From assembly GCA_020425485.1 (NCBI GenBank), contig JAGQRL010000029.1, positions 1-46,424 of the forward strand: a stretch of 46,424 nucleotides of DNA. The letters run 5' to 3'. The translations under genes were made by a program, and so were the position numbers. Below the pieces are notes generated by a model. The model was given only the letters and a program-made list of their open reading frames with translations, was not told where the DNA came from and made no database searches. This document shows positions 31,568-46,424 of the stretch, in pieces (position 1 is the first letter of the stretch; every line of letters starts with the position of its first letter). The DNA comes from Rhodospirillaceae bacterium (GTDB taxonomy: Bacteria > Pseudomonadota > Alphaproteobacteria > DSM-16000 > Inquilinaceae).

Positions 31568-31568
31568 G

Positions 31569-32006
31569 ATGGCCGAAACGACCGGGGCCGAAACGACCGC
31601 TGCCGAAACCCTGGTGCGCGACTTCCTGGCCGCGGTGGAACGCCGCGATGTCGCCGCCTGCCAGGCGGTGATGGCGCCCGACATCGTGATGACCTTCCCC
31701 AGCGGCGTGCGCCATGCCGATATCCAGGCGCTGTTCGCCTCGTCGGGCAAGCGCTACCGCGCCGTCGCCAAGACCATCGAGCAGGTGGACGTGCTGCCGA
31801 CGGGGGCGGAGGCCGCCATCGTCTACTGCTTCGGCACGCTCTACGGCACCTGGATGAACGGCCAAGCGTTCGACGGCATCCGCTTCATCGACCGGTTCGA
31901 GATCAAGGGCGGGCTGATCACGCGCCAGGACGTGTGGAACGACAGCGCCATCTTCCGCCCGGCCGAAGAGCCGTCGACGCCGGCCTCCCGGGCCACCCTG
32001 CTGTAG
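31569..32006 (+). CDS. SnoaL-like / NTF2-fold small protein
   Basis: 145 aa. The pattern (LVRDFLAAVERRDVAA ... DRFEIKGGLITRQDVWND) is typical of the NTF2-like polyketide-cyclase fold. It starts 1 nt after the tctA stop. Confidence 0.6.
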   Translation: MAETTGAETTAAETLVRDFLAAVERRDVAACQAVMAPDIVMTFPSGVRHADIQALFASSGKRYRAVAKTIEQVDVLPTGAEAAIVYCFGTLYGTWMNGQAFDGIRFIDRFEIKGGLITRQDVWNDSAIFRPAEEPSTPASRATLL

Positions 32007-32030
32007 AGCATTTTCTGTTCAGTCTGCTCC

Positions 32031-32096
32031 GCCCTCACCCCCGCCCGGCCGCCCAAGCCATTGTAAAATATTGGGTGGCCGGGCGGAGGTGAGGGC
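32031..32096. repeat. Long imperfect inverted repeat (26-nt arms, 14-nt AT-rich loop) between convergent genes; terminator or REP-like element
   Basis: GCCCTCACCCCCGCCCGGCCGCCCAA - GCCATTGTAAAATA - TTGGGTGGCCGGGCGGAGGTGAGGGC, with two mismatches. Confidence 0.7.
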
Positions 32097-32127
32097 CGGG
32101 ACCGAGTCAACAAGGCGCGAAAGCCCC

Positions 32128-32685
32128 CTAGATATCGATGTTCAGCGTCAGCTCGTAGACGGCCTGCTTGCTGACGCTCCACTTGCCGGAATTGTAGACG
32201 TGGCGGGCGAAGTTCACATGCGCCCAGAAGGCCGATTCCAGCACGGATTCGCCCATGAACTGGTCGGTGGTGTTCTTCTCCGGGATCAGCGCCAGTAGCT
32301 GCGGCAGGTTTTCCAGGTCGCTGCCGTCGTTGATCCGGTAGGTGCCTTCGAAATCGCCCGTCAGGGTGACGACGATGTCGCACACCATCAGGCCCTGCTC
32401 GGCGCGCGCCCGGTTGATCTTCATCAGGTTTTCCGCGATGAGCTGGCCGGCCGCGGCCCCCAGGCCCTGTAGCGGCTTGGTGACGATGTCCGCCACCGTG
32501 ACCACGATCCCGGCCGGGCCGCCAACCACCGCGGCCGCACCCTTCTTCATGATCTGCTTCAGCACCTGCTTGGCCGCGAATTCCTTGGCCTTGCTTTCCA
32601 GCTTCGGGCTGCCTTCGAACCAGCCGTCATAGATGCGCGAATAGCCGAAATCCTGGTTCGTCGCGGTGATCTTGTAGCCAATCAT
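32128..32685 (-). CDS. Hypothetical protein (185 aa), no recognisable family
   Basis: ATG at 32685 with GGGAGA upstream. Composition is balanced and K/E-containing, unlike the spurious high-GC ORFs. It has a central Gly/Ala-rich hydrophobic segment GAAAVVGGPAGIVVTVADIV. GC is about 60%. Confidence 0.55.
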   Translation of the reverse strand: MIGYKITATNQDFGYSRIYDGWFEGSPKLESKAKEFAAKQVLKQIMKKGAAAVVGGPAGIVVTVADIVTKPLQGLGAAAGQLIAENLMKINRARAEQGLMVCDIVVTLTGDFEGTYRINDGSDLENLPQLLALIPEKNTTDQFMGESVLESAFWAHVNFARHVYNSGKWSVSKQAVYELTLNIDI

Positions 32686-33519
32686 GACCGACGGTCTCCC
32701 CCCATCCCGGCGGCGGCGATAGCGGGCCGCCCAGTGGCCCGGCGCGCCGCGCCTCGTCGATTGATCGAACCCAACGTGCTCGGAAGGGAAATTTGCCCGG
32801 CAATAGGGCAACGGCACGGCTTCTTCTTGCCGGCAATGCCTGGCTGCCGCCCCTCCCGCCAGCCGCCCGGCCCTGCGTGCGCGGACCATACCATCGCGCC
32901 ATGCGGGCCCGAAGGGTGGTGCGACGGGTGCGCCGATTGGTCTAAGTGTGATCACAGATCACCGATCAACAATCATTGATCTTGACCATGCTTCGGACCT
33001 ATGGCACCGTTTTGCCAAGAGCTGGAAACGGTCATGAAAGGCAATCGCCAAAGCCGCACGTCCGTTGGCGGGTTGAACGCGGCCAGACCCTACTAATCCT
33101 TCAGTATTACACCGGGCGCTTGTCAGAATCAGGGCTCGCGGCACGGACGAATTATAGCCCGTGGACTGCGCGAGATCATGGCAGCGGGCCGGGCACTGGC
33201 GGGGCATCTGGCGAAGACGGGCACAGCGGCCGAGCGGCCGCCGGCAAGCTGCGGGTCGCCGGGCAGTGCCAGCCAGCCGAAAGGTTTGGCGGTGCGCGCG
33301 GTGCGGCGCTACCAGGGGGCCAATGCGGTGCCCGGACCAATCCAACGGCCAACCCTGCCGCGTGCGGTCTTGCGGCAGGCACGGCCCCGATCCCATCCCC
33401 AGCCAGGGAGGTGAGTGACCGCCACGAAGCCCACCCAGATCCGACTTCCAACAGCCGTCGCCCAATCCCGAATGGCGGCGGCGCCAAGAACAAAATCGGA
33501 CACCAGGAGGAACACCGTC

Positions 33520-34749
33520 ATGAGAAGACTTGCAGCCGTTTTGCTGGCATCCACCGCCGTCGCCGTGGCCGCCCCAGCCCAGGCCGAACCCCTGCGCATC
33601 GGCATCATCGAGAGCCTGTCCGGCTCACAGACCTCCACCGGGCGCCTCTATTCCGCCGCCGTGCAGTACGGCGTGGACATCATCAACGCCGCCGGCGGCT
33701 TCAACGGCGAGCCCATCGAGGTGATCGAATACGACAATGCCGGCGGCAGCACGGGCGCTGCCGACGAGTTCCGCCAGGCGGTGGCCGACGGCATCCACAT
33801 CGTCTTCCAGGGGGCGTCCTCGGCCGTGGCCGGGCAGATCACCGAAGACGTGCGCCGCCACAACATCCGCAATCCCGGCGACGAGATCATGTACATCAAC
33901 CTCGGTGCCGAGGCGATGTCGCTCACCGGCGACCAGTGCCACTTCTACCATTTCCGCTACGCCACCACCGCGCCGATGCGGGTGAACGCCCTGGTGAATG
34001 CCATGGCGGCGGCGGGCGACCTGGGCACCCGGGTGTTCTCCATCAACCAGAACTATTCCTGGGGCCAGGACATGCAGGCCGCCATCGAGGCGGCTGCGGA
34101 TATCGGCGGCTACGAGGTGGTCGAGGAGGTCCTGCACGACGTCAATTCCATCCAGGACTTCGCCCCCTACGTCGCCCGGATCAACGCCGCCGACCCCGAC
34201 ACGGTGATCACCGGCAACTGGTCCAACGACCTGCTGCTGCTGATGCGGGCGGCCAGCGAAGCCGGCCTGGACGTGCGCTTCGGCACCACCTTCCTCGACC
34301 AGCCGGGCAACATCGCCAATGCCGGCGACACCGCCATCGGCCACTACCTGGCCAACAACTACGTGCCCGCCGCCGGCCCCGCGGAGTTCAACGACGCCTA
34401 CCGCGACGCGGTCGGCCACTACCCGATCTTCGTCGAACCGCCCACCATCTTCGCCGTGGGCGCGCTGGCTGAGGCGCTGGAGGGCCTCGATTTCGGCGGC
34501 GGCGACATCAACGTGACCGACATCGCCCTGGCGCTTGAGGGCGTGGTCTACGAAAGCCCCATCGGGCCGATCTCGGTGCGCGCGGAAGACCACCAGACGA
34601 TCCGCCCGGTGGTGGTGTCCCACGTGGTGGAGGATGCCGAATACCCGGTGGACGAAACCACGCTGGGCTTCGAGCCGGTGGCCATCGTGGCCGGCGAAGA
34701 TGCGATCTATCCTGTGCAGGACTCCTGCGAGATGGAACGGCCCGAATAA
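33520..34749 (+). CDS. ABC transporter substrate-binding protein, LivJ/Peripla_BP_6 (branched-chain amino acid type) family
   Basis: AGGAGG RBS (33505-33510). Signal peptide MRRLAAVLLASTAVAVAAPAQA, then LRIGIIESLSGSQTSTGR. Confidence 0.85.
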   Translation: MRRLAAVLLASTAVAVAAPAQAEPLRIGIIESLSGSQTSTGRLYSAAVQYGVDIINAAGGFNGEPIEVIEYDNAGGSTGAADEFRQAVADGIHIVFQGASSAVAGQITEDVRRHNIRNPGDEIMYINLGAEAMSLTGDQCHFYHFRYATTAPMRVNALVNAMAAAGDLGTRVFSINQNYSWGQDMQAAIEAAADIGGYEVVEEVLHDVNSIQDFAPYVARINAADPDTVITGNWSNDLLLLMRAASEAGLDVRFGTTFLDQPGNIANAGDTAIGHYLANNYVPAAGPAEFNDAYRDAVGHYPIFVEPPTIFAVGALAEALEGLDFGGGDINVTDIALALEGVVYESPIGPISVRAEDHQTIRPVVVSHVVEDAEYPVDETTLGFEPVAIVAGEDAIYPVQDSCEMERPE

Positions 34750-34765
34750 GGCCACCCCGTCTACC

Positions 34766-34794
34766 GACCCGGCCGGGACCCCCCGGCCGGGGTC
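34766..34794 (+). terminator. Strong GC hairpin between the SBP and permease genes (intra-operon attenuator or mRNA stabiliser)
   Basis: GACCCGGCCGG - GACCCC - CCGGCCGGGGTC. There is no downstream T-tract. Confidence 0.45.
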
Positions 34795-34824
34795 TCGCCG
34801 ACCTCTGCATCCAGCGGGATCGCG

Positions 34825-35766
34825 ATGGAATTCATCATCATCTCCACGCTGAACGGCGTGATCTACGGCCTGCTGCTGTTCATGGTGTCGGCCGGCCTCA
34901 CGCTGATCTTCGGCATGATGGGCATCCTCAACTTCGCCCATGCCTCCTTCTACATGCTGGGTGCCTATGTCGGGTACACCCTGTCGGCACTGGTCGATTT
35001 CTGGGTCGGGCTGATCGTCGCCCCCTTGCTGGTGGGGGCCGTCGGCATCCTGGTGGAACGCTACATGCTGCGCCGGGTGCACAGCTTCGGGCATGCCCAT
35101 GAGCTGCTGCTGACCTTCGGCCTGGCGCTCATCTTCGAAGAGCTGATCAAGCTGTTCTTCGGCGATTTTCCGGTGAACTACCGGATGCCGGAAGAGCTGC
35201 ACTTCGCCGCCTTCACCGTGTTCGGCACCGACTATCCGTTCTACCGGCTGTTCATCGGCGTGGTCGCGGTGATCATGTTCGTCGCCCTGTTCGTGCTGCT
35301 GGCGCGCACCCGCATCGGCATCGTGGTGCGGGCGGCCGAACGCCTGCCGAAGATGGCCGAAAGCCTGGGCCACAACATCCCGCTGGTGTTCATGGGCGTG
35401 TTCGGCGTCGGTGCGGCGCTGGCCGGGCTGGCCGGTGCGGTGGCCGGTGCCTACTTCCCCACCAACCCCAACATGGCGCTGGAACTCGGCGTCATCGTGT
35501 TCGTGGTGGTGGTGGTCGGCGGGCTGGGATCGCTCAAGGGCTCGCTCGTCGCCTCGCTGATGATCGGGCTGTTCTCGTCCTTCTCCATCGGGCTCGACTG
35601 GTCGCTGGCCAGCCTGCTCAGCCTGATCGGCCTCGGCGACTGGGCGGAATCCGTGGGCGGGCTGCTGACCATGACCATCTCCTCGATCAGCGGCACCATC
35701 CCCTTCCTCCTCATGCTCATCGTCCTGCTGGTGCGCCCGGCGGGCCTGATGGGCGACCGCAATTGA
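34825..35766 (+). CDS. Branched-chain amino acid-type ABC permease (LivH family)
   Basis: 313-aa polytopic protein with a typical LivH N-terminus (INGVIYGLLLFMVSAGLTLIFGMMGILNFAH). Confidence 0.9.
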   Translation: MEFIIISTLNGVIYGLLLFMVSAGLTLIFGMMGILNFAHASFYMLGAYVGYTLSALVDFWVGLIVAPLLVGAVGILVERYMLRRVHSFGHAHELLLTFGLALIFEELIKLFFGDFPVNYRMPEELHFAAFTVFGTDYPFYRLFIGVVAVIMFVALFVLLARTRIGIVVRAAERLPKMAESLGHNIPLVFMGVFGVGAALAGLAGAVAGAYFPTNPNMALELGVIVFVVVVVGGLGSLKGSLVASLMIGLFSSFSIGLDWSLASLLSLIGLGDWAESVGGLLTMTISSISGTIPFLLMLIVLLVRPAGLMGDRN

Positions 35767-35782
35767 GGAGGCCGCGGGTCCC

Positions 35783-37063
35783 GTGAAAACGCCGCTCATC
35801 ATCGCCGCCGTCCTGGCGGTCCTGGCAGGGCTGCCGCCCTTCCTGGACCTCGGCCTGCAGAACGCCCTGGTGAACGTGCTGATCGCCAGCCTGTTCGCGC
35901 TCGCCTTCAACCTGCTGGTCGGCCAGGCCGGGCTGCTCTCCTTCGGCCATGCCGCCTATTTCGGCGTCGGCGCCTTCGCCACGCTGCACCTGATGCGGGT
36001 GGTGGAGGACGGGCTGGGCTTCCCCACCCCGCTGCTGCCGCTGGCCGGCGCCCTCACCGGGCTGGTGGTGGGCGCCATCGCCGGCTTCTTCGCCACCATG
36101 CGCTCCGGCGTCTATTTCGCCCTGGTCACGCTGGCGATCGCCGAGCTGTTCCACGCGCTGGCGCCGCGCTGGCAGGGGCTGTTCGGCGGCGAGGCGGGGC
36201 TGTCGTCCATGCGCATGCCCTGGCAGGGCATCACCTTCGGCTCCACGCTGGAGGTCTATTACCTGGCGCTTGGCTGGGTGGTGCTCTCCATCTGCCTCCT
36301 ATGGGCCTACACCCGCACGCCCTTCGGCCGGCTGACCCTGGCCTTGCGGGACAACGAACAGCGGGTGCGCTTCCTGGGCTACGACGCCCACGCCACCAAG
36401 GTGATCGTGTTCGCCATCTCCGCCATGTTCTCCGGCATCGCCGGGTCGTTGCAGGCGATGTCCAACGAGGTGGCCAACTACTCCCTGTTCTCCTCGCATG
36501 TGTCGGCCGAGGTGGTGCTCTACGCCTTCGTCGGCGGTTCCACCGTGTTCTTCGGGCCGCTGCTGGGAGCCGCCATCTTCACCCTGTTCGCCTATCTGAT
36601 TTCCGACCTCACCCGGTCGTGGCTGCTCTATCAGGGCCTGATCTTCGTGCTGGTGATGCTCTACGCCCCCACCGGCATCGGCGGTGTCGTGCAGTACCAC
36701 GCCCGCCACTGGCCGCGGCTGGACTGGTCGCGGCTCACCGGCCCCTACGCGCTGGGCGGCCTGGGCGGCGTGCTGGTGGCGGGCGCGGCCGTGTTCCTCA
36801 CCGAAACCCTGAGCGTGCTGTTCGACGAGCCCTACGCCGTGGCGCGCCGCGATGCCGGCGGCGGCTACCCGCCGTTCGAGGCGTTTGGCACTGCGTGGGA
36901 TCCGCTGAGCGTGCTCACCTGGCTGGTACCGGTGGCGCTGTTCGCCGCCGGACTGTTCGTGCTGGCCCGTGCGCGCCGCACCATCGCCGAGGAGTGGGAC
37001 GCCATCCGCAGCGACCCGGCCGCCGAGGCGGCGGGAGACGCGGCGGGCGAGGCAACGAGGTGA
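35783..37063 (+). CDS. Branched-chain amino acid-type ABC permease (LivM family)
   Basis: Motif LLVGQAGLLSFGHAAYFGVGAF. GTG start. It has a C-terminal extension. Confidence 0.85.
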   Translation: MKTPLIIAAVLAVLAGLPPFLDLGLQNALVNVLIASLFALAFNLLVGQAGLLSFGHAAYFGVGAFATLHLMRVVEDGLGFPTPLLPLAGALTGLVVGAIAGFFATMRSGVYFALVTLAIAELFHALAPRWQGLFGGEAGLSSMRMPWQGITFGSTLEVYYLALGWVVLSICLLWAYTRTPFGRLTLALRDNEQRVRFLGYDAHATKVIVFAISAMFSGIAGSLQAMSNEVANYSLFSSHVSAEVVLYAFVGGSTVFFGPLLGAAIFTLFAYLISDLTRSWLLYQGLIFVLVMLYAPTGIGGVVQYHARHWPRLDWSRLTGPYALGGLGGVLVAGAAVFLTETLSVLFDEPYAVARRDAGGGYPPFEAFGTAWDPLSVLTWLVPVALFAAGLFVLARARRTIAEEWDAIRSDPAAEAAGDAAGEATR

Positions 37064-37067
37064 GCCG

Positions 37068-37829
37068 ATGACCGCACCCGCCCCCACCCTTCAGTTCGTC
37101 GGCGTCACCAAGTCCTTCGGCCAGGTGTCGGTGATCCGCGGCGTCGATCTCGATGTCCTCGCCGGTGAGCGCCACGCGGTGATCGGCCCCAACGGTGCCG
37201 GCAAGTCCACGCTGTTCAACCTGGTCTCCGGCCTGTTTCCGTTGAGCGACGGCGACATCCTGCTCAGGGGCCGCAGCATCGCCGGCCAGCCGCCCCACCG
37301 CATCAACCGCAGCGGGCTGGCGCGCTCCTTCCAGATCACCAACATCTTCCACCGCCTCAGTGTGTTCGAGAACCTGCGCATCGGCGTGCTGGCACGCCAC
37401 GGCGTGCGCTACGGGCTGTTCCGCCCGGTTTCCCGCCTGCGCCGGATCAACGAGGAAACCCGCGAGATCCTCTCGCTGGTGCGCCTGGAGGCGCGGGCCG
37501 ACGACATGGCCGGCGACCTCACCTATTCCGAACAGCGGGCGCTGGAGATCGGCATGACGCTGACCACCGGTGCCGACGTGATCCTGCTGGACGAACCCAC
37601 CGCCGGCATGTCGCGCGACGAAACCGCCCGCGCCGTGGAGCTGATCCGCGACGTCACCCAGGGCAAGACCCTGCTGATGGTGGAACACGACATGAGCGTG
37701 GTGTTCAGCCTGTGCGACCGCGTGTCGGTGCTGGTGTACGGCGAGATCCTGGCCACCGACACGCCGCAGGCCATCAGCGCCAACCGCGAGGTGCAGCAGG
37801 CCTATCTGGGCGAGGAGGCCGCCCCATGA
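37068..37829 (+). CDS. ABC transporter ATP-binding protein (LivG family)
   Basis: Motifs GPNGAGKSTLFN, YSEQRALEIGM, ILLDEPTAGM. Confidence 0.9.
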   Translation: MTAPAPTLQFVGVTKSFGQVSVIRGVDLDVLAGERHAVIGPNGAGKSTLFNLVSGLFPLSDGDILLRGRSIAGQPPHRINRSGLARSFQITNIFHRLSVFENLRIGVLARHGVRYGLFRPVSRLRRINEETREILSLVRLEARADDMAGDLTYSEQRALEIGMTLTTGADVILLDEPTAGMSRDETARAVELIRDVTQGKTLLMVEHDMSVVFSLCDRVSVLVYGEILATDTPQAISANREVQQAYLGEEAAP

Positions 37830-38536
37830 GCCTTCTGGAACTCAGCGGCCTGCACGCCCATTACGGCAAGAGCCACATCCTGCACGGCGTCGACCTGGCG
37901 GTGCCGGAAGCCACCATCGTTTCCCTGCTCGGGCGCAACGGCTCGGGCCGCTCCACCACCTTGAAGGCGATCATGGGCCTGGTGCGGCCCTCGGCCGGCA
38001 CGGTCACCCTGGCCGGCCGCGACCTGACCGGCCGGCGGCCCTACGACATCTGCCGCCAGGGCATCGGCTTCGTGCCGGAAGAGCGCCTGGTCTTCCCCAA
38101 CCTCACCGTTGAGGAAAACCTGGTGATGGGCGTGCAGAAGGCCCCGGCCGGCGTGCCCGCCTGGACCATCGCGGAAATGTACGACTACTTCCCGCGCCTG
38201 AAGGAGCGCGGCACCATCCGCGCCGGCTACCTGTCCGGCGGCGAACAGCAGATGCTGACGATCTGCCGCTCGCTGCTCGGCAATCCGCGCGTGCTGCTGA
38301 TCGACGAGCCGACGGAGGGCCTCGCCCCCCAGATCGTCGACGTCGTCATGGAAGTGATCCTCGACATCGGCCGCCGCGGCATCGCGGTGGTGCTGGTGGA
38401 GCAGAAGCTGACCATCGCGCTGAAGGTCGCCGCCCGCGTGATGGTGATGGGCCACGGCGAGATCGTGTTCAACGGCACCCCCGATGAATTGGCCGAGAAC
38501 CCGGATGTCCGGCACGCCTGGCTGGAGGTGGCCTGA
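37826..38536 (+). CDS. ABC transporter ATP-binding protein (LivF family)
   Basis: Motifs GRNGSGRSTTL, LSGGEQQML, LLIDEPTEGLAP. ATGA overlap with the livG-like gene. Confidence 0.9.
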   Translation: MSLLELSGLHAHYGKSHILHGVDLAVPEATIVSLLGRNGSGRSTTLKAIMGLVRPSAGTVTLAGRDLTGRRPYDICRQGIGFVPEERLVFPNLTVEENLVMGVQKAPAGVPAWTIAEMYDYFPRLKERGTIRAGYLSGGEQQMLTICRSLLGNPRVLLIDEPTEGLAPQIVDVVMEVILDIGRRGIAVVLVEQKLTIALKVAARVMVMGHGEIVFNGTPDELAENPDVRHAWLEVA

Positions 38537-38620
38537 CATGGCGCCCCGGCACAGCCCGACGGCACCGCGGCCCGGCACCCCCATGCGGCAACCCGCCGGC
38601 GTGAAGCGAGGACGTGAGTG

Positions 38621-39409
38621 ATGAACCTGATTGACCGGATGCGCCCGCGGCCCCGGCTGCGCGTGCTGGTAACCGCGGGGGCCGCGGGGATCGGCGCGGT
38701 GATCGCAGAGGGGTTCCTGCAGGCGGGCGCCCAGGTTCTGATCTGCGATATCGATGCCGCCGCCCTGGCCGGCTTCGCCGCAGCCCACCCCGAGGTGCTG
38801 ACCAGCGAGACCGACGTGTCCGATGCCGCAGCGGTGGAGCACCTGTTTGAGGAGGTCACCGCGCGCCTCGGCGGGCTCGACGTGCTGGTTAACAATGCCG
38901 GGGTGGCCGGCCCCACCGGCCCGGTGGACCAGCTTGCGATCGACGAGATCCGCCGCACCTTCGATGTCGACCTGATGGGCCAGTTCCAGGTGGTGCGCCT
39001 GGCGGTGCCGATGCTGCGGGCCAGCGGCGACGGGGCGATTATCAACATGTCGTCGGTGGCCGGCCGCCTCGGCTACCCGCTGCGCACACCCTATGCGGCG
39101 GCCAAATGGGGCGTGGTGGGGTTCACCGCCAGCCTGGCCAAGGAGCTGGGGCCTGACGGCATCCGCGTGAACGCCATCCTGCCCGGCGTGGTGCGCGGCC
39201 CCCGCATCGAGCGCGTGATCCGCGACCGCGCGGTGGCGGCCGGCGTATCCTACGAGGATATGGAAGCCCAGTACCTGAAGCTCAGCTCGCTGCGCCGCAT
39301 GGTGGAACCGGAGGATATCGCCACCATGGCGCTGTTCCTGTGCTCGCCGGCCGGGGCCAACATTTCCGGCCAGGCCATCAGCGTGTGCGCCAACGTCGAA
39401 ACCCTGTGA
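38621..39409 (+). CDS. SDR family oxidoreductase (3-hydroxyacid/3-oxoacyl reductase-like)
   Basis: Motifs VTAGAAGIGAVIA, NNAGVAG, SSVAG ... YAAAKWGVVG. A GTG one codon upstream (38618) is an alternative start. Confidence 0.85.
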   Translation: MNLIDRMRPRPRLRVLVTAGAAGIGAVIAEGFLQAGAQVLICDIDAAALAGFAAAHPEVLTSETDVSDAAAVEHLFEEVTARLGGLDVLVNNAGVAGPTGPVDQLAIDEIRRTFDVDLMGQFQVVRLAVPMLRASGDGAIINMSSVAGRLGYPLRTPYAAAKWGVVGFTASLAKELGPDGIRVNAILPGVVRGPRIERVIRDRAVAAGVSYEDMEAQYLKLSSLRRMVEPEDIATMALFLCSPAGANISGQAISVCANVETL

Positions 39410-39453
39410 GTTTCAAGAAGCCCGCGTAAGAGACCGCGTCAGAGAGAGAACCC

Positions 39454-40389
39454 ATGGCCCAGAGCCCCCGCAAGGTCATCATCACCTGTGCCGTCACCGG
39501 CGGCATCCACACGCCCAGCATGTCGCCGCACCTGCCGATCACCCCCAACGAGATCGCCGAGGCGGCCATCGGTGCTGCCGAAGCGGGGGCGGCCATCATC
39601 CACCTGCACGCACGCAACCCGGAGGACGGCCGGCCCAACCAGTCCCCCGAAGCGTTCGGCGAGTTCCTGCCGCGCATCAAGCAGTCCACCAACGCCGTGG
39701 TGAACCTGACCACCGGCGGCAGCCCGACCATGCTGGCCGAAGAGCGGGTGCAGCCCGCACTGCGCTTCAAGCCGGAGGTAGCCTCGCTCAACATGGGCTC
39801 GATGAACTTCGCGCTGTTCCCCATGCTGAACCGCTACAAGGAGTTCAAACACGCCTGGGAGCCGGAATACCTGGAAAAGACGCGCGACGTGGTGTTCCGC
39901 AACACCTTCAAGGACATCGAATACATCCTCAGCTCGTGCTCGGACAACGGCACCCGCTTCGAGTTCGAGTGCTACGACATCAGCCACCTCTACAACCTCG
40001 CCCATTTCCTCGACCGCGGGCTGGTGAAGCCGCCGCTGTTCGTGCAGTCGGTGTTCGGCATCCTCGGCGGCATCGGCACCCACCCCGAAGACGTGATCCA
40101 CATGCGCCGCACCGCCGACCGGCTGTTCGGCGATGCCTATCGCTGGTCGGTGCTGGGTGCCGGGCGCGCCCAGATCCCCATCCTCACCATGGCCGCGGCA
40201 ATGGGCGGCAATGTGCGCGTGGGGCTGGAGGATTCGCTGTGGATCGGCCCCGGCCAGCTTGCCGAAAGCAACGCCGCCCAGGTGCGCCGCATCCGCCAGG
40301 TGCTGGAAGGGCTGGGCCTGGAGGTGGCGACGCCGGACGAGGCGCGCGAGATCCTCTCGCTGAAGGGCGGCGATCAGGTCGAATTCTGA
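39454..40389 (+). CDS. Beta-keto acid cleavage enzyme (BKACE/DUF849; 3-keto-5-aminohexanoate cleavage enzyme family)
   Basis: Family N-terminus VIITCAVTGG ... PITPNEIAEAAIGAAEAGAAIIHLHARNPEDGRP with the zinc HxH motif. TIM-barrel length of 311 aa. Confidence 0.85.
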   Translation: MAQSPRKVIITCAVTGGIHTPSMSPHLPITPNEIAEAAIGAAEAGAAIIHLHARNPEDGRPNQSPEAFGEFLPRIKQSTNAVVNLTTGGSPTMLAEERVQPALRFKPEVASLNMGSMNFALFPMLNRYKEFKHAWEPEYLEKTRDVVFRNTFKDIEYILSSCSDNGTRFEFECYDISHLYNLAHFLDRGLVKPPLFVQSVFGILGGIGTHPEDVIHMRRTADRLFGDAYRWSVLGAGRAQIPILTMAAAMGGNVRVGLEDSLWIGPGQLAESNAAQVRRIRQVLEGLGLEVATPDEAREILSLKGGDQVEF

Positions 40390-40504
40390 GGCCCGGTGCC
40401 GCCGGCCCGTGCAGTTCTGGCCTGCGCCTTGCGCGCCCGCTCCCAGGTCGTGAGGCGCAGCATCACCGTGCTACCTAAGATGGTCCCCGCCGCGGAGCCG
40501 ACCG

Positions 40505-40948
40505 ATGCCCGATGACGCCAAGCCCGAGCTGCCGACCCTCGACCAGTTCGCCCACCACAGCTACGACAAGCTGCGCTACCGCGATACCGACCGGCAGGGC
40601 CATGTGAACAACGCGGTGTTCGCCACCCTGCTGGATACCGGGCGCACCGAGCTGTTCTACAACCCCGACCGCCCCTTCGCGGATATCGGCTGCAGCTTCG
40701 TCACCGCGCGGCTGACCATCGATTTTCTGGCGGAGATCCACTGGCCCGGCCGTGTCGATGTCGGCACCCGCATCGGCCGCATCGGCCGCAGCTCCACCAC
40801 GGTGGAACAGGCCCTGTTCCAGGATGGCCGCTGTGTGGCCACCGCCACCGCCATCGTCGTCCAGGTCGGTGCCGATGGCCGCGGGCATCCGTTCTCCCAG
40901 CATGCCGTCGACGTGCTGACCGGCTACGCCCCCAACCTGGCGCAATAG
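40505..40948 (+). CDS. Hotdog-fold acyl-CoA thioesterase (4HBT/YbgC-like)
   Basis: RYRDTDRQGHVNNAVF catalytic Asp context. 147 aa. Confidence 0.8.
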   Translation: MPDDAKPELPTLDQFAHHSYDKLRYRDTDRQGHVNNAVFATLLDTGRTELFYNPDRPFADIGCSFVTARLTIDFLAEIHWPGRVDVGTRIGRIGRSSTTVEQALFQDGRCVATATAIVVQVGADGRGHPFSQHAVDVLTGYAPNLAQ

Positions 40949-40975
40949 GCTCCCGCCGATCGGCACCGCCGCCCC

Positions 40976-41692
40976 TCAGGGCAGCTTGGGCAGGCCCGTG
41001 GCCGCGGCCGCTTCGTATTCCGATTTGTAGTACCGGTGGATCCAGAAATGGGCCGAGCGGATATCCAGCGCGATGGCCCGCCTGGCCGAGGCCCGATCGC
41101 GCCGCGCAATGGCGTCGATGGCGTCGTCGTGCACCTTGTAGCCGATCTCGAAGATCTTGAAGAACTTGTCGGTGTCGGACCGCAGCATGGCGAGGATCGG
41201 CCCGGTCCGCAGCCACAGGCTGGAGATGATGTCCAGAAGCTGGGGATAGGCCGCCGCCTTGTAGATTTCGAAATGGAAGGACTGATTGCCCGACAGCGCC
41301 CCTTCCAGGTCCGACGCCCTGAGGGCCTCGCGCATGGCGTTGTTGTGGAATTTCAGGCGATCGACGAGCAACGGATCCTTGGACGAGCACGCCTTTTCCG
41401 TGGCAAAGCCCTCAACCTCGATCCTGATGCGAATATATTCTTCGTGGACGCTGTCCACGTAGGACGCGACGCGCAGCAGCCGGTCGGACGACTGTTCCAG
41501 CGCCTTTTCCGCCACCAGCCGCTTGGTCGCCTCGCGCACCGGCATGGGGCTGGTGCCGAACGCCTCCGCCAGCCGCCGGATCGACACCGGCTCGCCCGGC
41601 AGGAACTGGCCCTTCAGCAGAGCCAGGCGAAGGCTCTGGTAGACCCGTTCCTGCACCGTGGTCACATCCACCGGTGCCAGCTCGATGTTCAT
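40976..41692 (-). CDS. GntR family transcriptional regulator (FCD subfamily)
   Basis: wHTH region VSIRRLAEAFGTSPMPVREATKRLVAEKAL plus a helical C-terminal domain. Confidence 0.85.
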   Translation of the reverse strand: MNIELAPVDVTTVQERVYQSLRLALLKGQFLPGEPVSIRRLAEAFGTSPMPVREATKRLVAEKALEQSSDRLLRVASYVDSVHEEYIRIRIEVEGFATEKACSSKDPLLVDRLKFHNNAMREALRASDLEGALSGNQSFHFEIYKAAAYPQLLDIISSLWLRTGPILAMLRSDTDKFFKIFEIGYKVHDDAIDAIARRDRASARRAIALDIRSAHFWIHRYYKSEYEAAAATGLPKLP

Positions 41693-41906
41693 GTCACGCT
41701 TCCGAGACGTTCAACGCGCGAAATCCCACCCCCGTCGTCCCCACGAGAGTTAGAGCGTTCTTGCCCGTAGGAGTTATAGCGAAAATCACCACTGGCCACT
41801 CAGGTCAGACCCGCCACTCGCCAGCCCATCCAATATCTTACAAAGGCTTACATGGCTAGGTTGCTCGGGATTGTTCAAGGGCAGCTCGTCTAGTGTGGGC
41901 TCTGAC

Positions 41907-42962
41907 CTAGTAGTCTCTCGCGACTCTGAAGCCGATATCGTTGAGGCCAGTGGTCGAACTCCAGGGAAATCGGATCATGGTTCGAACCGTCATCAACGGA
42001 CGGTATGCCCATGAAACGCCAAAGGGCATGCGCTGAGAGCAATCGCCCTCTAGCGAAGGGCGCGCCGTCTCCGACGGATATCTGAACATCTGCCCATTCC
42101 AGCAATCCTCTGTCCACTCTCGAACATTCCCGGCTATGTCATAGAGGCTGCGGAAATCCGGGTCAAACTGATGAACGGGAGAGGTATGGCTAAATCCATC
42201 CTGACAGCCAGCCAACTCCCAGCCTTGATAATATTCCTCAGCAGATTGGTCCGGAATATTAGCTCCAGGACAGACGGTTTCTGCAAAGAATATTGTAAAA
42301 TATGTCTCTAAGCTTGAAGAGTACTCGACTTCAGCTTCCGTCGGCAGGCGATAGGACTGAGATGTCAGGTTCGAGAGCCATTGTGCGTAGGCCTGGGCGT
42401 CGTCCCAACTCACGCAGACCACCGGGTGATCCTGCCCTTGCGAAAACCCCGGATTCTGCCAGTTCAAACTCAGCGATGGGTCATATGACACCGGGATCTC
42501 GCGGCCGACAGCGTTGGTCCAGGCGCTGCACTGGTCGGCACTCCTGTGCCCGGTAGCGGCAACAAATGTCGCGTACTGCTGGACCGTGACTTCGGTCCGA
42601 GCGAGGGCAAACCGGCCGATCGAGGTGTAGGTTACCGGTGCATCGTCGTCGATCACCCGGCCCCCAACGATGGTGGGCGGATTGGGCATCGTGCCCGACT
42701 GGATGGCGACCATCTCAGGACAAGCCGGACAATCGCGAAAGGTTTGCCCGGGTACAGGTGCCGGCCTTGACGGATACTCCGGTTGGCCATAATCCGGACC
42801 AAGAAGATCTTCGAAGGATTGCGCGACGGCCGGCGCATTCAGCGTCGCAAGAACAACGACGGCCGCCAATGCAAAGATCGTTCGCCCCCAGATAGATCGA
42901 TTGCCCATCCGGCGGATAGTCGCACGCGCTGGCGATGACGTAGGCCCCTTCTTGTCAACCAT
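41907..42962 (-). CDS. Secreted FGE-sulfatase-fold (SUMF1/EgtB/PvdO family) protein lacking the FGE catalytic Cys pair
   Basis: Signal-like segment IFALAAVVVLATLNAPAVAQS. Family motifs FRDCPACPEMVAI, ARTEVTVQQYATF, HPVVCVSWDDAQAYAQWLS, YRLPTEAEVEY, GNVREWTEDCW, IGFRVARD. The start is 5 nt after the kinase stop. An alternative ATG lies at 42908. Confidence 0.8.
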   Translation of the reverse strand: MVDKKGPTSSPARATIRRMGNRSIWGRTIFALAAVVVLATLNAPAVAQSFEDLLGPDYGQPEYPSRPAPVPGQTFRDCPACPEMVAIQSGTMPNPPTIVGGRVIDDDAPVTYTSIGRFALARTEVTVQQYATFVAATGHRSADQCSAWTNAVGREIPVSYDPSLSLNWQNPGFSQGQDHPVVCVSWDDAQAYAQWLSNLTSQSYRLPTEAEVEYSSSLETYFTIFFAETVCPGANIPDQSAEEYYQGWELAGCQDGFSHTSPVHQFDPDFRSLYDIAGNVREWTEDCWNGQMFRYPSETARPSLEGDCSQRMPFGVSWAYRPLMTVRTMIRFPWSSTTGLNDIGFRVARDY

Positions 42963-42967
42963 GGTCG

Positions 42968-45478
42968 CTACCCCCTCTCATAGCAGGCAAGATTGTCCGG
43001 TGATCCCAGAAGCCGGAGCGCCCGGTCGGCCTCCTCCAGTCCCTGGGCTGCCGCAAGTTCCAGCAGCCGGCGCGCCTCCCCCCGGTTCATCGCAACGCCG
43101 GTGCCGGTGGCGTACATGCTGCCTAGGATATGTTGGGATTGTGCTTGCCCCGCCTCCGCCGCCAACTCGACGACCAGCACGCGTTGCTGAGGCGTCAGTT
43201 CGCCCGTGTCCGCTTCGCCAATCTCGGACTGGAAAGCTCGTATGGCCGCCCTGCTTGCCGGACCGATGATCCCATCATTTCTACCGGAATAGTAGCCAAG
43301 CCCTTGCAAGGCTTGCTGAATAGCGCGCGGTGGAATCGATGCCGCGCGATCGAGCGCCGCTGCGTCACGGGGATCTTCGCCACCGGCTTGGCGCCCGATG
43401 GAAATGGCGGCGGTGGCTATCTGCGCTTCTAGATGCCACACGTCGTCCGCGTCCACCGACAGGAGCCGCCGGTACCAGCCTTCGGCCTCCTCAATGCGGC
43501 CAAGGCAATGGGCGATCTGGCCGGCAACCAGCATCAGCTCCGGCGCCTGAGCTTCGGCCGGAAACTCGGTGAAGACGGCGTCCAGCCTCGATGCCGCCTC
43601 GGGAAGGTTACCCACACGGATTGCTTGCCAAACCTCGGCAAGGCGCCTCGAAGGTAGACTGCCGGTGGCAGATGCCATGGCGGCGACAGCCTCATCGATA
43701 CTGTCTGCGACCTGCTGCGCCAGCTCGTCGTCTCCACTGGTCTGCGCCCGCGCGTTCGCCAACTCCAGGACTACCGCCGACTGGGACAGTCGGCCTTCTT
43801 CGAACAGTGCCTCACCTGCCTGCATCAATGTGCCGGCACTCTCCAGGTCGGGAACAGCGGGGGCCAAGGCCTCAATGCCAGCGGGAGCAGGATCGACCGC
43901 GAGACCACTGGCAGGACCAACGGGCGCACCGCCATCTGGCCTCTCCGGCTCCGGTTCGGCGGCGGTCAACTGGTCCACCTCGCCATCGGCACTTGCAGCA
44001 GCCGGCTCCGGTGCAGCCACAGGGGAGCGCGTTGGCGGGTCGGCGGGCACCGGAACGATGTCCAAGTTGTTTGGCGGCGGAGGCATTTCCTGCGGTGCCG
44101 CCGTCGGTGGTATGGCCACAACGTCGCTTTCGTTGACCTGCCCCTCGGCAAGCGACAACGGCACAGGATCGCCGTCCTCGATGCCGGCGAATTCATCGTG
44201 GTCCGCCACCGTGATTGGATCGGACGGCGGCTCCTGGGTCGGTGTAAGCTCCTCAGCGGCGGTTCCGGTGTCAGGCTCCGGCTCCGATGGGGAGATGGCA
44301 CCGCTTTCGCCATCCCATCCCCGATCATCCAAAGACGATTGGCGCTCAACGTCCGGCCCCATCGCTTCCTCCGACGTGTCGGGGACCGCCGGCCACCAAC
44401 TTGCGATGACAACCGCCAAAGACGCCACCGTTGCCCCACCGCCCACGGACGCCCAAAGCACAGCCCGGGAGTGAGGCCGCTTGCTCTCCGGTTCGTCCAC
44501 CGGCGTTGGCCGGTCCTGTTGGCCGATCGCCGACCTGAACACCTCTGCAAACGCACTTGCACTACCGAACCGGTCCGCCGGATCGCGAGCGGTTGCCTTG
44601 GCCACCGCGTCATCAAGCCAATCCGGCAGATCCGGTCGCAGCGTCTTGGGGCGAAGGCAATCGGTCTCAAGCTTGGATTTGATGATTTGGGGAGTTGTCT
44701 TGCTCGAAGCGAACGCTCTGCGCCCGGTCAGGATTCGGAACAGAACGAGGCCGAGGCTGTAGATATCCGACCTCGCATCCCCCTCCTGTCCTTGATCATA
44801 AAGCTCCGGTGCGATGTATACTGTTGTCCCCACCGGCGAGCCGGTAAGAGTCAATCTGGTGTCATTCTCTATTCTGGCAATTCCAAAATCCGCCAACTTG
44901 ATCGACCGATCAGCGCCCACCAGTATGTTGTCCGGCTTGATGTCTCGGTGATACACACCTTTGGCGTGAGCGTGCTGAAGCGCATCGAGGACTGTCGAAG
45001 CAATTCGCACCGCTTCGTCCACTGTGGCCGGCTTGCCGACGGGGCAGAATGCCTCTAGCGACTGCCCGTCCACATACTCCATGACGAGGTACGGAGCCCC
45101 GTAGAGCGGCGGGCCATCTTCCGCACTGCCAGTGTCGTACACTCTCACGATTGCATTGTGGTCGAAGCGGCCCACCGCCTTGCGTTCCACATTGAACCGA
45201 CGCAGCAGATCGGCCCATTGGCTACTATTGGCCTGGCGGTCCGGATGGACCACCTTGATAGCAACAGGCCGGCCCATGCCTGCGTCGTAAGCTTTGAGCA
45301 CGTTCCCCATGCCGCCCTTGCCGATCCACGCTTCGATTCGATAGCGACCGATCGTCTTCGGCAGGACATGATCGCGGTTTTTTGACTCGAGTTGCGAATC
45401 GCTGAAGGTTTCGTTGGCTTTGCTGCGCTTCTCAACCAACGTTGTCGCTCCGCCAGACGGCCCACCACACTTTTTCAT
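42968..45478 (-). CDS. Hanks-type Ser/Thr protein kinase, single-pass receptor with Pro/Glu-rich linker, helical repeats, PG_binding_1 and Sel1-like C-terminal modules
   Basis: Kinase motifs IGKGGMGNV, VAIKV, HRDIKPDNIL, DFGIA, YIAPE. TM at aa 339-362. PG_binding_1-like IQQALQGLGYYSGRNDGIIGPASRAAIRAFQ. Sel1-like LGSMYATGTGVAMNRGEARRLLELAAAQG. Confidence 0.9.
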   Translation of the reverse strand: MKKCGGPSGGATTLVEKRSKANETFSDSQLESKNRDHVLPKTIGRYRIEAWIGKGGMGNVLKAYDAGMGRPVAIKVVHPDRQANSSQWADLLRRFNVERKAVGRFDHNAIVRVYDTGSAEDGPPLYGAPYLVMEYVDGQSLEAFCPVGKPATVDEAVRIASTVLDALQHAHAKGVYHRDIKPDNILVGADRSIKLADFGIARIENDTRLTLTGSPVGTTVYIAPELYDQGQEGDARSDIYSLGLVLFRILTGRRAFASSKTTPQIIKSKLETDCLRPKTLRPDLPDWLDDAVAKATARDPADRFGSASAFAEVFRSAIGQQDRPTPVDEPESKRPHSRAVLWASVGGGATVASLAVVIASWWPAVPDTSEEAMGPDVERQSSLDDRGWDGESGAISPSEPEPDTGTAAEELTPTQEPPSDPITVADHDEFAGIEDGDPVPLSLAEGQVNESDVVAIPPTAAPQEMPPPPNNLDIVPVPADPPTRSPVAAPEPAAASADGEVDQLTAAEPEPERPDGGAPVGPASGLAVDPAPAGIEALAPAVPDLESAGTLMQAGEALFEEGRLSQSAVVLELANARAQTSGDDELAQQVADSIDEAVAAMASATGSLPSRRLAEVWQAIRVGNLPEAASRLDAVFTEFPAEAQAPELMLVAGQIAHCLGRIEEAEGWYRRLLSVDADDVWHLEAQIATAAISIGRQAGGEDPRDAAALDRAASIPPRAIQQALQGLGYYSGRNDGIIGPASRAAIRAFQSEIGEADTGELTPQQRVLVVELAAEAGQAQSQHILGSMYATGTGVAMNRGEARRLLELAAAQGLEEADRALRLLGSPDNLACYERG

Positions 45479-45650
45479 TGTGCCACTGGGACGGGCGCAC
45501 CGCCAACCGTGCTAAAGGCGTTTTCCACTCACCCGCGGCCGACCCGGCGGCGGGCAGAGCCTTGTGATCTCCTTGCAACGCTCTCCGGGGACCGGCCCGC
45601 ACCCCCACGACCGGCAGACGGTCCCGTCGTCCGCTCCGTGCACCGCCGGC

Positions 45651-46424
45651 TCACTGCCAGTCCAGCACCACCTTGCCCGCCTTGCCGGCGGCGGCGATGG
45701 CGAAGGCCGCCTGGTAGTCGTCCACCTTCATGCGGTGGGTGATCACCTTGCGGACATCGAGCCCGGACTCCAGCATGGCCAGCATCTTGTACCAGGTCTC
45801 GAACATCTCCCGGCCGTAGATGCCGCGCAGCGTCACCAGGCGGAACACCACCTTGCCGAGATCGAAGATGAAGGGCCGGGAGGGAACCCCTAGCAGCGCC
45901 ACGCGCCCGCCCATCACCAGGCTGTCGATCATCTGCTCCAGGGCGGCAGGCGCGCCGCTCATCTCCAGCCCGACGTCGAAGCCTTCCGTCATCTTCAGCT
46001 CCGCCATCACGTCGCGCAGGTCCTCCTTGGTCACGTCGACCGTGCGCAGGTCGCCCACCACCGCTTCGGCCAGCTTCAGGCGCTCGGGATTGACGTCGGT
46101 GATCACCACGTGGCGCGCGCCGACATGCTTGGCCACGGCCGCCCCCATGATGCCGATGGGCCCGGCACCGGTGACGATGACATCCTCGCCGACGAGATCG
46201 AAGGCCAGGGCCGTGTGCACGGCATTGCCCAGGGGATCGAGGATGGCGCCGATCTCGTCGTCCACCGCATCGGGCAGCGGCACGATGTTGAAGGCAGGGA
46301 TGCGGGCGTAGTCGGCAAAGGCGCCGGGAATGTTCACGCCGATGCCCTTGGTTTCGGGGTCGAGATGGTATCTGCCGGCGCGCGCGGCCCGGCTCTTCAT
46401 GCCCACCACATGGCCTTCGCCGGA
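45651..46424 (-). CDS. tdh: L-threonine 3-dehydrogenase, C-terminal part (5' end outside the window)
   Basis: Near-identical blocks to known Tdh: [76 protein letters not shown]. The frame is open to the window end. Confidence 0.95.

Follow-up and report, generated by a model that had tools for sequence, protein, structure and literature searches.

A horizontally acquired gene pair encoding a predicted receptor Ser/Thr kinase and a predicted secreted FGE-fold protein in a Rhodospirillaceae bacterium

Introduction

In the H1 type VI secretion system (T6SS) of Pseudomonas aeruginosa, the same operon encodes TagR, a periplasmic accessory protein with the fold of the formylglycine-generating enzyme (FGE; COG1262), and PpkA, a Hanks-type kinase with a single transmembrane (TM) helix. 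TagR has been listed as COG1262 (PMC13584744), as has the protein ToxD (PMC9040811), and is reported to activate PpkA, probably through contact with the PpkA periplasmic domain (PMC6082577). It acts upstream of the kinase and probably triggers dimerisation and autophosphorylation (PMC6082577, PMC13584744). Here, we analysed a 46,424-nt stretch of DNA from a Rhodospirillaceae bacterium (assembly GCA_020425485.1, contig JAGQRL010000029.1, positions 1 to 46,424 of the forward strand; this whole stretch is referred to as the window), in which a gene for a predicted receptor Ser/Thr kinase is directly followed by a gene for a predicted secreted FGE-fold protein. We designate the latter the FGE-like protein. 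The two genes form a foreign islet, and TagR–PpkA is their closest characterised analogue.

FGE folds occur in several other described contexts. Fusions of FGE-sulfatase domains to kinases, caspases, STAND NTPases, and TIR domains have been reported (PMC7159879, PMC3501461, PMC13581612, bioRxiv 10.1101/2025.01.12.632604), and a kinase–TM–FGE-sulfatase architecture is listed for the "Proteo1" family of bacterial Ser/Thr kinases (bioRxiv 10.1101/2025.01.12.632604). FGE-fold sensor or neutraliser domains, termed FGS, have been described in STAND, vWA-MoxR ternary, and diversity-generating retroelement (DGR)-linked conflict systems (PMC7159879, PMC10907252, PMC13581612). The T6SS immunity protein Tsi3 of Acinetobacter baumannii is an exported, non-catalytic FGE-fold protein that was shown experimentally to bind its effector (bioRxiv 10.1101/2021.05.21.445229). 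Compared with these systems, the pair in the window is most likely a split variant of known designs and not a new type of system.

The kinase and FGE-like genes form a foreign islet

The two genes, their junction, and the limits of the islet are as follows:

42968–45478, minus strand: kinase gene, an open reading frame (ORF) of 836 amino acids; public gene callers start 13 codons further in, which gives 823 amino acids.
41907–42962, minus strand: FGE-like gene, an ORF of 351 amino acids for a predicted secreted, non-catalytic, PvdO-like protein of the FGE-sulfatase fold.
42963–42979, minus strand: gene junction, composed of GAGAGGGGG (42971–42979), the stop codon TAG, and a 5-nt spacer, followed by ATG.
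41791–41906, no strand: proximal islet boundary; blastn homology to the sister genome ends at approximately 41790, 98 nt past the GntR start.
45479–45650, no strand: upstream spacer between the tdh and kinase genes; 72.7% GC, host-like, and the presumed promoter location.

A first-pass annotation of the window, made from the letters alone, had placed the two ORFs at these positions with 5 nt between the kinase stop and the FGE-like start, and had described a low-GC island wedged between a tdh gene and a GntR regulator gene. Both descriptions hold. The island shows most clearly in the GC content at third codon positions (GC3). Relative to a reference of 28 Pfam-validated native genes (mean 0.896, standard deviation [SD] 0.025, minimum 0.855), the GC3 of the FGE-like gene is 0.628 (-10.6 SD) and that of the kinase gene is 0.686 (-8.3 SD). 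Total GC, calculated in 500-nt intervals, is 0.536–0.622 over 41501–43000 and 0.58–0.60 over 44501–45500; it is near the host level over 43001–44500, the central linker-coding part of the kinase gene (0.66–0.67). The flanks, a tdh-like gene upstream (Pfam ADH_zinc_N; zinc-dependent dehydrogenase) and a GntR/FCD regulator gene downstream, have a native GC3 of 0.87–0.91. Because the GntR, thioesterase, BKACE, and tdh genes are all native by GC3, the islet consists of the kinase and FGE-like genes alone. The pair is thus a foreign, horizontally acquired islet between the tdh and GntR genes.

The proximal boundary of the islet was located by comparison with the Rhodospirillaceae metagenome-assembled genome GCA_020638575.1 (hereafter, the sister genome), which encodes proteins at least 90% identical to the native GntR and TctA proteins (cluster look-ups). 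The sister chromosome is 86–90% identical to the window at the nucleotide level over 30160–41790; since this homology stops at approximately 41790, the boundary lies between 41790 and 41907, within a GntR/FGE-like spacer (41693–41906) of 56.5% GC. The FGE-like, kinase, and tdh genes are absent at the syntenic sister locus, where unrelated genes follow GntR, and a clean empty site, with tdh adjoining GntR, was not found in that genome. A metagenome scan with the GntR protein returned only short, distant contigs. Direct or inverted repeats, tRNA genes, and Rfam matches are all absent at the islet flanks, and a Pfam survey of the approximately 35 further ORFs of the window detected no integrase or transposase.

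At the junction, the kinase ORF ends with GAG AGG GGG TAG. The stop codon (42970–42968) is separated from the FGE-like ATG (42962–42960) by the 5-nt spacer CGACC (42963–42967), and the Shine-Dalgarno-like, purine-rich GAGAGGGGG within the kinase 3' end terminates 8 nt before this ATG. The two ORFs are in different frames with the stop codon and the spacer between them and do not form one polypeptide. A promoter and terminator scan found no terminator-like hairpin between or within the two genes and no sigma-70-like consensus in the tdh/kinase spacer. From this geometry, co-transcription is plausible, and translational coupling by termination–reinitiation is possible. The kinase–FGE–GntR junction was recovered at 99.9–100% identity in 3 independent metagenome assemblies and is therefore not a chimera. 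An exact 15-nt direct repeat, ACGGGCGCACCGCCA, occurs in the linker-coding part of the kinase gene (43920–43934) and just upstream of the kinase start (45491–45505); in GC-rich sequence, it is probably due to chance.

The kinase has a predicted peptidoglycan-binding ectodomain

The kinase can be divided into 6 parts, from the N-terminus to the C-terminus:

44549–45343, minus strand: kinase domain, predicted cytoplasmic (residues 46–310; Pfam and motifs read from the sequence).
44396–44464, minus strand: single TM helix (approximately residues 339–361; Kyte–Doolittle windows exceed 1.5 solely at 339–343).
43754–44383, minus strand: predicted periplasmic low-complexity linker (residues 366–575; 34 Pro, 32 Ala, 25 Glu, and 19 Asp in 210 residues).
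43379–43735, minus strand: helical-repeat part of the ectodomain, similar to tetratricopeptide repeats (TPR-like; residues 582–700; sub-threshold matches to TPR_16/TPR_19).
43184–43327, minus strand: PG_binding_1 domain (residues 718–765; Pfam 9.8e-11, 42.1 bits against a cutoff of 23).
43040–43144, minus strand: Sel1 repeat (residues 779–813; Pfam 3.3e-4, under the cutoff).

The N-terminal domain matches Pkinase at 2.2e-45 (155.5 bits against a cutoff of 31.7) and keeps all the Hanks motifs: GKGGMG (residue 53), VAIK (72), HRDIKPDN (177), DFG (197), APE (223), and DIYSLG (238). It is predicted to be catalytically competent. The TM helix is flanked by basic residues on its N-terminal side and acidic residues on its C-terminal side, which predicts an N-in/C-out topology. 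The protein is thereby predicted to be a receptor-type, single-pass TM Hanks-type Ser/Thr kinase, which agrees with the receptor kinase named by the first-pass annotation.

The linker (residues 366–575) has no Pfam match. Beyond it, an AlphaFold2 (AF2) model of residues 577–836 is all-helical, with a mean predicted local distance difference test (pLDDT) score of 85; a Foldseek search with this model returned generic Sel1/TPR proteins only. The sub-threshold Sel1 repeat is retained in homologous proteins that combine a caspase-like domain with PG_binding_1 and Sel1 (described below). As judged from its domain content, the outer part of the kinase should reach and bind peptidoglycan.

The FGE-like protein lacks the FGE catalytic cysteines

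The FGE-like protein is composed of 2 regions:

42819–42962, minus strand: predicted signal peptide region (residues 1–48; basic n-region, hydrophobic core IFALAAVVVLATL, and the cleavage-type motif AVA/QS).
41916–42722, minus strand: FGE-sulfatase domain (residues 81–349; alignments to human FGE and the family).

The hydrophobic core of the signal peptide spans residues 23–41, with the hydropathy peak at residues 23–32; a helix is predicted at residues 24–40, followed by a disordered stretch. Export of the protein to the periplasm is predicted. The mature part matches FGE-sulfatase (PF03781) at 2e-44 (152.6 bits against a cutoff of 23.3), so that the secreted FGE-fold protein of the first-pass annotation is borne out in both of its elements. 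In the family alignment, 8 cysteine residues are invariant or nearly so (Cys78, Cys81, Cys145, Cys183, Cys231, Cys253, Cys287, and Cys308), which fits an oxidising periplasmic location.

In human FGE, the copper-binding catalytic cysteines C336 and C341 lie in a GGS(Y/F)xC...C segment. The aligned region of the FGE-like protein, FGVSWAYRPLMTVR, contains no cysteine. Because both catalytic residues are absent, the protein cannot be a formylglycine-generating enzyme; an active FGE of the SUMF1 type was rejected at the sequence level, and the first-pass view that it is not a sulfatase maturase, for which an active FGE would have been the refuting case, is sustained. No sulfatase gene was matched by Pfam among the further window ORFs. 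Several nearly invariant family positions have also changed: MGSP reads NPP, EAEWEY reads EAEVEY, and RGGSW reads FGVSW.

The top match in several searches was PvdO. It is the top curated family in NCBIfam (NF051459; 1.5e-38, 132.5 bits against a cutoff of 500) and the top sequence match in the PDB (5HHA; 5.5e-29). A Foldseek search with an AF2 model of the FGE-like protein, which is of moderate quality (mean pLDDT 69.5), also placed PvdO first (E 1.7e-19, target-normalised TM-score 0.76). Across the PvdO and FGE structures, the E values of the model's matches are 1e-15 to 1e-19, and the ToxD structure 7SPQ was matched as well. Two further candidates were rejected: (i) a PvdO orthologue, with a score far under the cutoff and no pvd genes in the window (true PvdO is encoded in a pvdM-pvdN-pvdO arrangement); and (ii) an EgtB- or OvoA-type sulfoxide synthase, with 41 and 34 bits against cutoffs of 360 and 400, respectively, and no DinB domain.

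FGE-fold relatives are recurrently fused to kinases and caspases

Neither protein has a full-length orthologue in the data searched. The closest homologues of the FGE-like protein are 35–44% identical, and all matches of the kinase other than to itself cover the kinase domain only. We collected 80 FGE loci from species-representative genomes. Stand-alone genes account for 43 of the 80 loci and multidomain genes for 36; by Pfam, the latter include 12 genes with a caspase domain, 4 with a kinase, 2 with nSTAND1, 3 with SH3_3, 2 with PG_binding_1, and 1 each with TIR and PP2C. The multidomain relatives mostly carry the FGE domain at the C-terminus behind a caspase, trypsin, cyclase, TIR, PG_binding_1, SH3, or TPR module; a caspase–PG_binding_1–FGE fusion is present in P0007 and a PG_binding_1–FGE fusion in P0037. 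The first-pass annotation had pointed to recurrent fusions of FGE-sulfatase domains to kinases, caspases, and STAND NTPases, and the present sample reproduces them, with TIR in addition.

Kinase–FGE fusions were identified in L051, L052, L067, and P0137. With tblastn, a kinase was detected within 8 kb of 7 of the 80 FGE loci, 3 of which are individually confirmed kinase–FGE fusions (the Pfam census counts 4); the remaining matches are distant or on the opposite strand, at approximately chance level. No kinase was found beside other close stand-alone FGE homologues (P0035, P0064, P0071, and those on Azospirillum plasmids). Two other loci are of note. A complete-looking Ser/Thr cluster at L052:6061–12363 comprises a PP2C gene, the kinase–FGE fusion, a glycine-zipper protein gene, and a kinase–FHA gene; such partners are absent from the window. 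At L099:1077–8112, 4 tandem FGE-like genes and an ankyrin-repeat gene lie beside IS21 and SIR2_2, an arrangement that resembles Tsi3-type arrays.

A homologous cassette in the sister genome has a different N-terminal domain

When relatives of the kinase ectodomain were sought exhaustively with HMMER, the best colinear ones were caspase–(TPR)–PG_binding_1–Sel1 proteins, together with a few kinase–PG_binding_1/Sel1 proteins; tblastn of the ectodomain against plasmids gave no match. One of the colinear relatives, the caspase–TPR–PG_binding_1–Sel1 protein P0254, is 39% identical over 238 residues.

Another is encoded in the sister genome, at a site flanked by lepA and a gene for an aldehyde dehydrogenase. 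There, a gene for a 512-residue caspase-like–PG_binding_1–Sel1 protein (L092:8418–9956, P0311) is followed after 45 nt by P0012, the closest stand-alone FGE homologue on a multi-megabase contig, which is 42% identical to the FGE-like protein (several other stand-alone matches are 41–44% identical). The C-terminal 132 residues of the caspase-like protein are 48.5% identical to residues 684–815 of the kinase. Given this match and the adjacent P0012, a homologous two-gene cassette exists with a different N-terminal domain. Its genes are also of low GC3 (0.686 and 0.681, against 0.89–0.94 in the neighbours).

In the proteins closest to the kinase ectodomain (L092:8418–9956, P0254, and P0345), the caspase-like domain has DAG or DAS instead of the catalytic DAC, and in P0345 the His is missing as well; DAC is kept in more distant relatives and in the caspase–FGE fusions. 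From these substitutions, the nearest caspase-like relatives are probably pseudo-caspases.

Comparison with described systems

The pair resembles TagR–PpkA in combining a periplasmic FGE-fold accessory protein and a single-pass TM Hanks-type kinase. By contrast, the window contains no T6SS genes, no tagQ, tagS, or tagT, no pppA (PP2C), and no gene for an Fha target, and its two genes are directly adjacent within a foreign islet. The periplasmic domain of PpkA is presumably von Willebrand A-like, unlike the TPR-like/PG_binding_1/Sel1 module of the window kinase. Since the contextual features of TagR–PpkA are missing from the window, we liken the pair to TagR–PpkA in its proposed mode of action and do not assign it to that pathway.

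The kinase–FGE fusions have the same domain order and the same predicted topology as the pair, with a cytoplasmic Hanks-type kinase and an extracytoplasmic C-terminal FGE fold. In the window, however, the FGE fold is a separate, predicted secreted protein, the kinase has a helical-repeat/PG_binding_1/Sel1 ectodomain of its own, and the kinase domains of the fusions are only 32–35% identical to that of the window kinase. The sister-genome cassette (L092/L093) shares the tight two-gene layout (45 nt between the genes, against 5 nt here), the low GC3, and the homologous modules. It differs in that (i) a secreted caspase-like domain with DAG for DAC takes the N-terminal place that is occupied by the cytoplasmic kinase, TM helix, and linker in the window; and (ii) it is inserted at lepA/aldehyde dehydrogenase and not at tdh/GntR.

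Like the FGE-like protein, Tsi3 family proteins are stand-alone exported FGE folds without the catalytic residues of FGE, EgtB, or PvdO. They are encoded in arrays beside tse3/vgrG with no link to a kinase, whereas the window has a single copy beside a kinase gene. PvdO is likewise periplasmic and without the FGE catalytic cysteines, and the N-terminal CxxC-PEMV motif is common to both proteins; the differences are the absence of a pvd context in the window, an identity of approximately 30%, and an NCBIfam score of 132 against the cutoff of 500. The FGS systems also use a non-catalytic FGE fold as a recognition module behind exchangeable N-terminal domains (caspase, trypsin, TIR, and STAND). 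They are cytoplasmic, built as one polypeptide, centred on an NTPase, and often diversified by a DGR, whereas the FGE-like protein is predicted to be periplasmic, separate, and kinase-linked. No template or variable repeats of a DGR were found at the islet, no repeat longer than 29 nt occurs in 41400–45900, and no reverse transcriptase domain is encoded by the window ORFs.

The analysis adds 3 elements to the first-pass annotation: the PG_binding_1/Sel1 ectodomain of the kinase, the homologous caspase-like cassette, and the TagR–PpkA precedent.

Other genes of the window

The further window ORFs encode, by Pfam, aconitases, TctABC and ABC transporters, a CLC channel, dehydrogenases, and a CHASE-PAS hybrid histidine kinase, among others. 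The last (5600–8179, minus strand) has a periplasmic CHASE domain, PAS, HisKA/HATPase, and a receiver; it is of native composition and unrelated to the kinase/FGE-like pair. No T6SS component was matched among these ORFs, and the window contains no pvd, siderophore, or nonribosomal peptide synthetase (NRPS) gene.

Three other ORFs are worth recording. A gene at 2786–5524 (minus strand) encodes a 912-residue bacterial NLR-like STAND protein, in which NNH3 (NACHT N-terminal helical domain 3) and NACHT domains are combined with pentapeptide repeats at the C-terminus; this gene constitutes a low-GC islet of its own (GC3 0.54, -14 SD from the native genes). Directly beside this islet, a gene of native composition at 1081–2742 (plus strand; GC3 0.90) encodes a 553-residue protein with eCIS_core and the N-terminal and catalytic domains of a Tse3-type peptidoglycan muramidase, which is likely a cargo toxin of a contractile-injection or T6SS type; no gene for a matching immunity protein was identified. 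A 275-residue ORF without a Pfam match (32128–32955, minus strand) coincides with a small indel: approximately 32104–32945 is missing from the sister genome, which is otherwise syntenic.

Discussion

In our judgement, it is somewhat probable that the pair is a horizontally acquired operon for a periplasmic co-sensor and a peptidoglycan-tethered receptor kinase; we infer their interaction, export, and topology. This periplasmic sensor-kinase reading is based on the operon geometry, the shared aberrant GC3, the intact kinase motifs and single TM helix, the PG_binding_1 match and confident helical model of the ectodomain, the signal peptide, conserved cysteines, and missing catalytic cysteines of the FGE-like protein, the sister-genome cassette, the natural fusions of FGE to kinase or caspase and PG_binding_1 domains, and the precedents of Tsi3, FGS, and TagR. 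The kinase would span the inner membrane and expose an active Hanks-type domain to the cytoplasm, and its long flexible Pro/Ala/Glu linker would carry the helical-repeat/PG_binding_1/Sel1 module to the peptidoglycan, to which the module would bind. The exported FGE-fold protein, with its FGE chemistry lost, would serve as a binder of a ligand or protein through its C-type-lectin-like FGS fold; non-enzymatic binding by FGE folds is backed by the Tsi3 experiments and by comparison with the STAND and ternary conflict systems (PMC7159879, PMC13581612, PMC10907252). It may dock on the repeat surface of the kinase ectodomain, and binding of the ligand could then alter kinase dimerisation and autophosphorylation, as TagR activates PpkA. 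The phosphorylation targets would be encoded elsewhere in the genome.

Several findings weigh against this reading. Near the pair, Pfam detected no PP2C phosphatase, FHA protein, substrate, or obvious effector among the further window ORFs, as the first-pass annotation had already remarked for a phosphatase, FHA protein, or effector. None of the other genomes searched contained an orthologous pair of kinase and FGE genes, and the homologous cassette is known from a single sister lineage only (L092 and L093 are the same sequence). Elsewhere, the genes lying closely upstream of stand-alone FGE-like genes have unrelated functions in metabolism or transport, and no FGE gene lies near those for the ectodomain-module proteins P0254, P0248, P0345, P0365, and P0287, most of which are on short contigs. 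The FGE-like protein itself scores 152 bits, against 180–226 bits in its relatives, has altered invariant positions, and could be drifting. Finally, the link between TagR and the FGE fold comes from a COG number in a review and the FGE fold of COG1262, not from a direct sequence comparison. The neighbourhood check proposed with the first-pass annotation thus had a divided outcome: conservation of the pair across taxa was not observed in the data searched, and the caspase-like cassette and the fusions connect homologous domains. Likewise, of the "signalling or conflict module" that had been proposed, the signalling half held in its checkable parts, and the conflict or defence half found no positive support here.

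The alternatives assign the FGE-like protein a role apart from the kinase or the pair a role in defence. As a Tsi3-type periplasmic immunity protein, it would neutralise an effector of a T6SS or another system by binding, and the kinase would be independent cargo or a reporter of the attack. Secreted non-catalytic FGE-fold proteins have indeed been shown to be effector-binding T6SS immunity proteins (bioRxiv 10.1101/2021.05.21.445229); such genes occur in variable, transposase-associated regions, as does the close homologue P0071 in its 4-gene FGE-like array with IS21 and SIR2_2, and the eCIS_core–Tse3-type muramidase at 1081–2742 indicates that the organism engages in contractile-injection warfare. 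However, Tsi3 homologues are typically arranged in arrays of at least two, next to and often on the opposite strand from tse3/vgrG/PAAR, and form a clade distinct from other FGE-domain proteins (bioRxiv 10.1101/2021.05.21.445229), whereas the window has a single copy 5 nt after a kinase gene, no T6SS gene matched by Pfam in approximately 35 ORFs, and a muramidase gene that lies 39 kb away and is of native composition; we regard the immunity role as quite unlikely. The PvdO matches raise a different prospect, an enzyme of the PvdO/SUMF1/EgtB superfamily that acts in the periplasm on a metabolite or peptide and adjoins the kinase through co-transfer or regulation. PvdO leads the NCBIfam, PDB sequence, and structure searches, identity to the PvdO that P. 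aeruginosa encodes within pvdMNO is 31.6%, and the N-terminal FRDCxxCPEMV motif is in common with PvdO. Yet the score remains far under the PvdO cutoff, the window provides no pyoverdine, siderophore, or NRPS gene, the chemistry of EgtB/OvoA would require a DinB domain and that of FGE the two missing cysteines, and the great majority of the subfamily relatives form the C-terminal part of signalling or effector proteins. Catalysis by PvdO itself has never been demonstrated in vitro. We therefore give the enzymatic interpretation little credence.

An anti-phage or other cell-autonomous conflict system of the abortive-infection type, with the kinase as the effector, would suit the foreign origin of the pair, the second islet with its NNH3-NACHT-pentapeptide STAND gene, and the FGE-like sensors found in defence-associated STANDs (PMC13581612) and proposed conflict systems (PMC7159879). 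The kinase domain also matches the PADLOC models PD-T4-6 (up to 262 bits), mad6, MkoA, and PglW kinase strongly. These matches, however, cover the generic kinase domain alone (residues approximately 40–340), and PknB-type housekeeping models score 270 bits; because these and other housekeeping kinase models score equally well, the PADLOC kinase matches do not discriminate. The FGE-like protein matches no PADLOC model, the two putative sensing parts have a predicted periplasmic location with a tie to peptidoglycan, whereas the STAND/FGS sensors are cytoplasmic, and the neighbours are metabolic genes and not a defence island, with the NACHT islet 37 kb away and no effector gene in the window. 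A conflict role thus seems improbable to us. Still less do we expect the islet to be a recently acquired remnant in functional decay, in which the FGE-like protein has no specific role. The altered family residues, the low family score, the mean pLDDT of 69.5, and the lack of partner genes nearby and of orthologues would be expected of such a remnant, but both ORFs (836 and 351 codons) are uninterrupted, all 8 conserved cysteines, the fold core, and the kinase motifs are kept, the Shine-Dalgarno-like junction is preserved, and the identical sequence recurs in several samples. Decay is accordingly very improbable.

A broader proposal goes beyond the periplasmic sensor-kinase reading: the window and sister pairs might represent an undescribed family of mobile, low-GC periplasmic surveillance cassettes, with a peptidoglycan-tethered PG_binding_1–Sel1 scaffold, an exchangeable N-terminal output (the TM Ser/Thr kinase in one case, the caspase-like domain in the other), and a secreted FGE-fold protein that catches foreign molecules. 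We consider this proposal unlikely. If it were true, the targets would be molecules entering the periplasm, such as effectors of T6SS or bacteriocin type, parts of a phage, or lytic enzymes, and the family would be the envelope counterpart of the cytoplasmic STAND/caspase–FGS systems and generalise TagR–PpkA beyond the T6SS.

Of the unexplained "sensor" modules carried by bacterial kinases, caspases, and STAND NTPases, FGE-fold domains are one of the most frequent. TagR–PpkA is the only kinase-linked case with genetics, and it is tied to type VI secretion. The pair described here is an incremental variant and not a new principle; it is an example of the transfer of small signalling cassettes from one genome to another with exchange of the output domain. 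Split into two proteins and located outside any T6SS cluster, such a pair would offer a simple means of studying which partners FGE folds bind and how they switch a Hanks-type kinase, with the attractions of a predicted peptidoglycan-anchored kinase ectodomain and a sister cassette that carries a different N-terminal domain.

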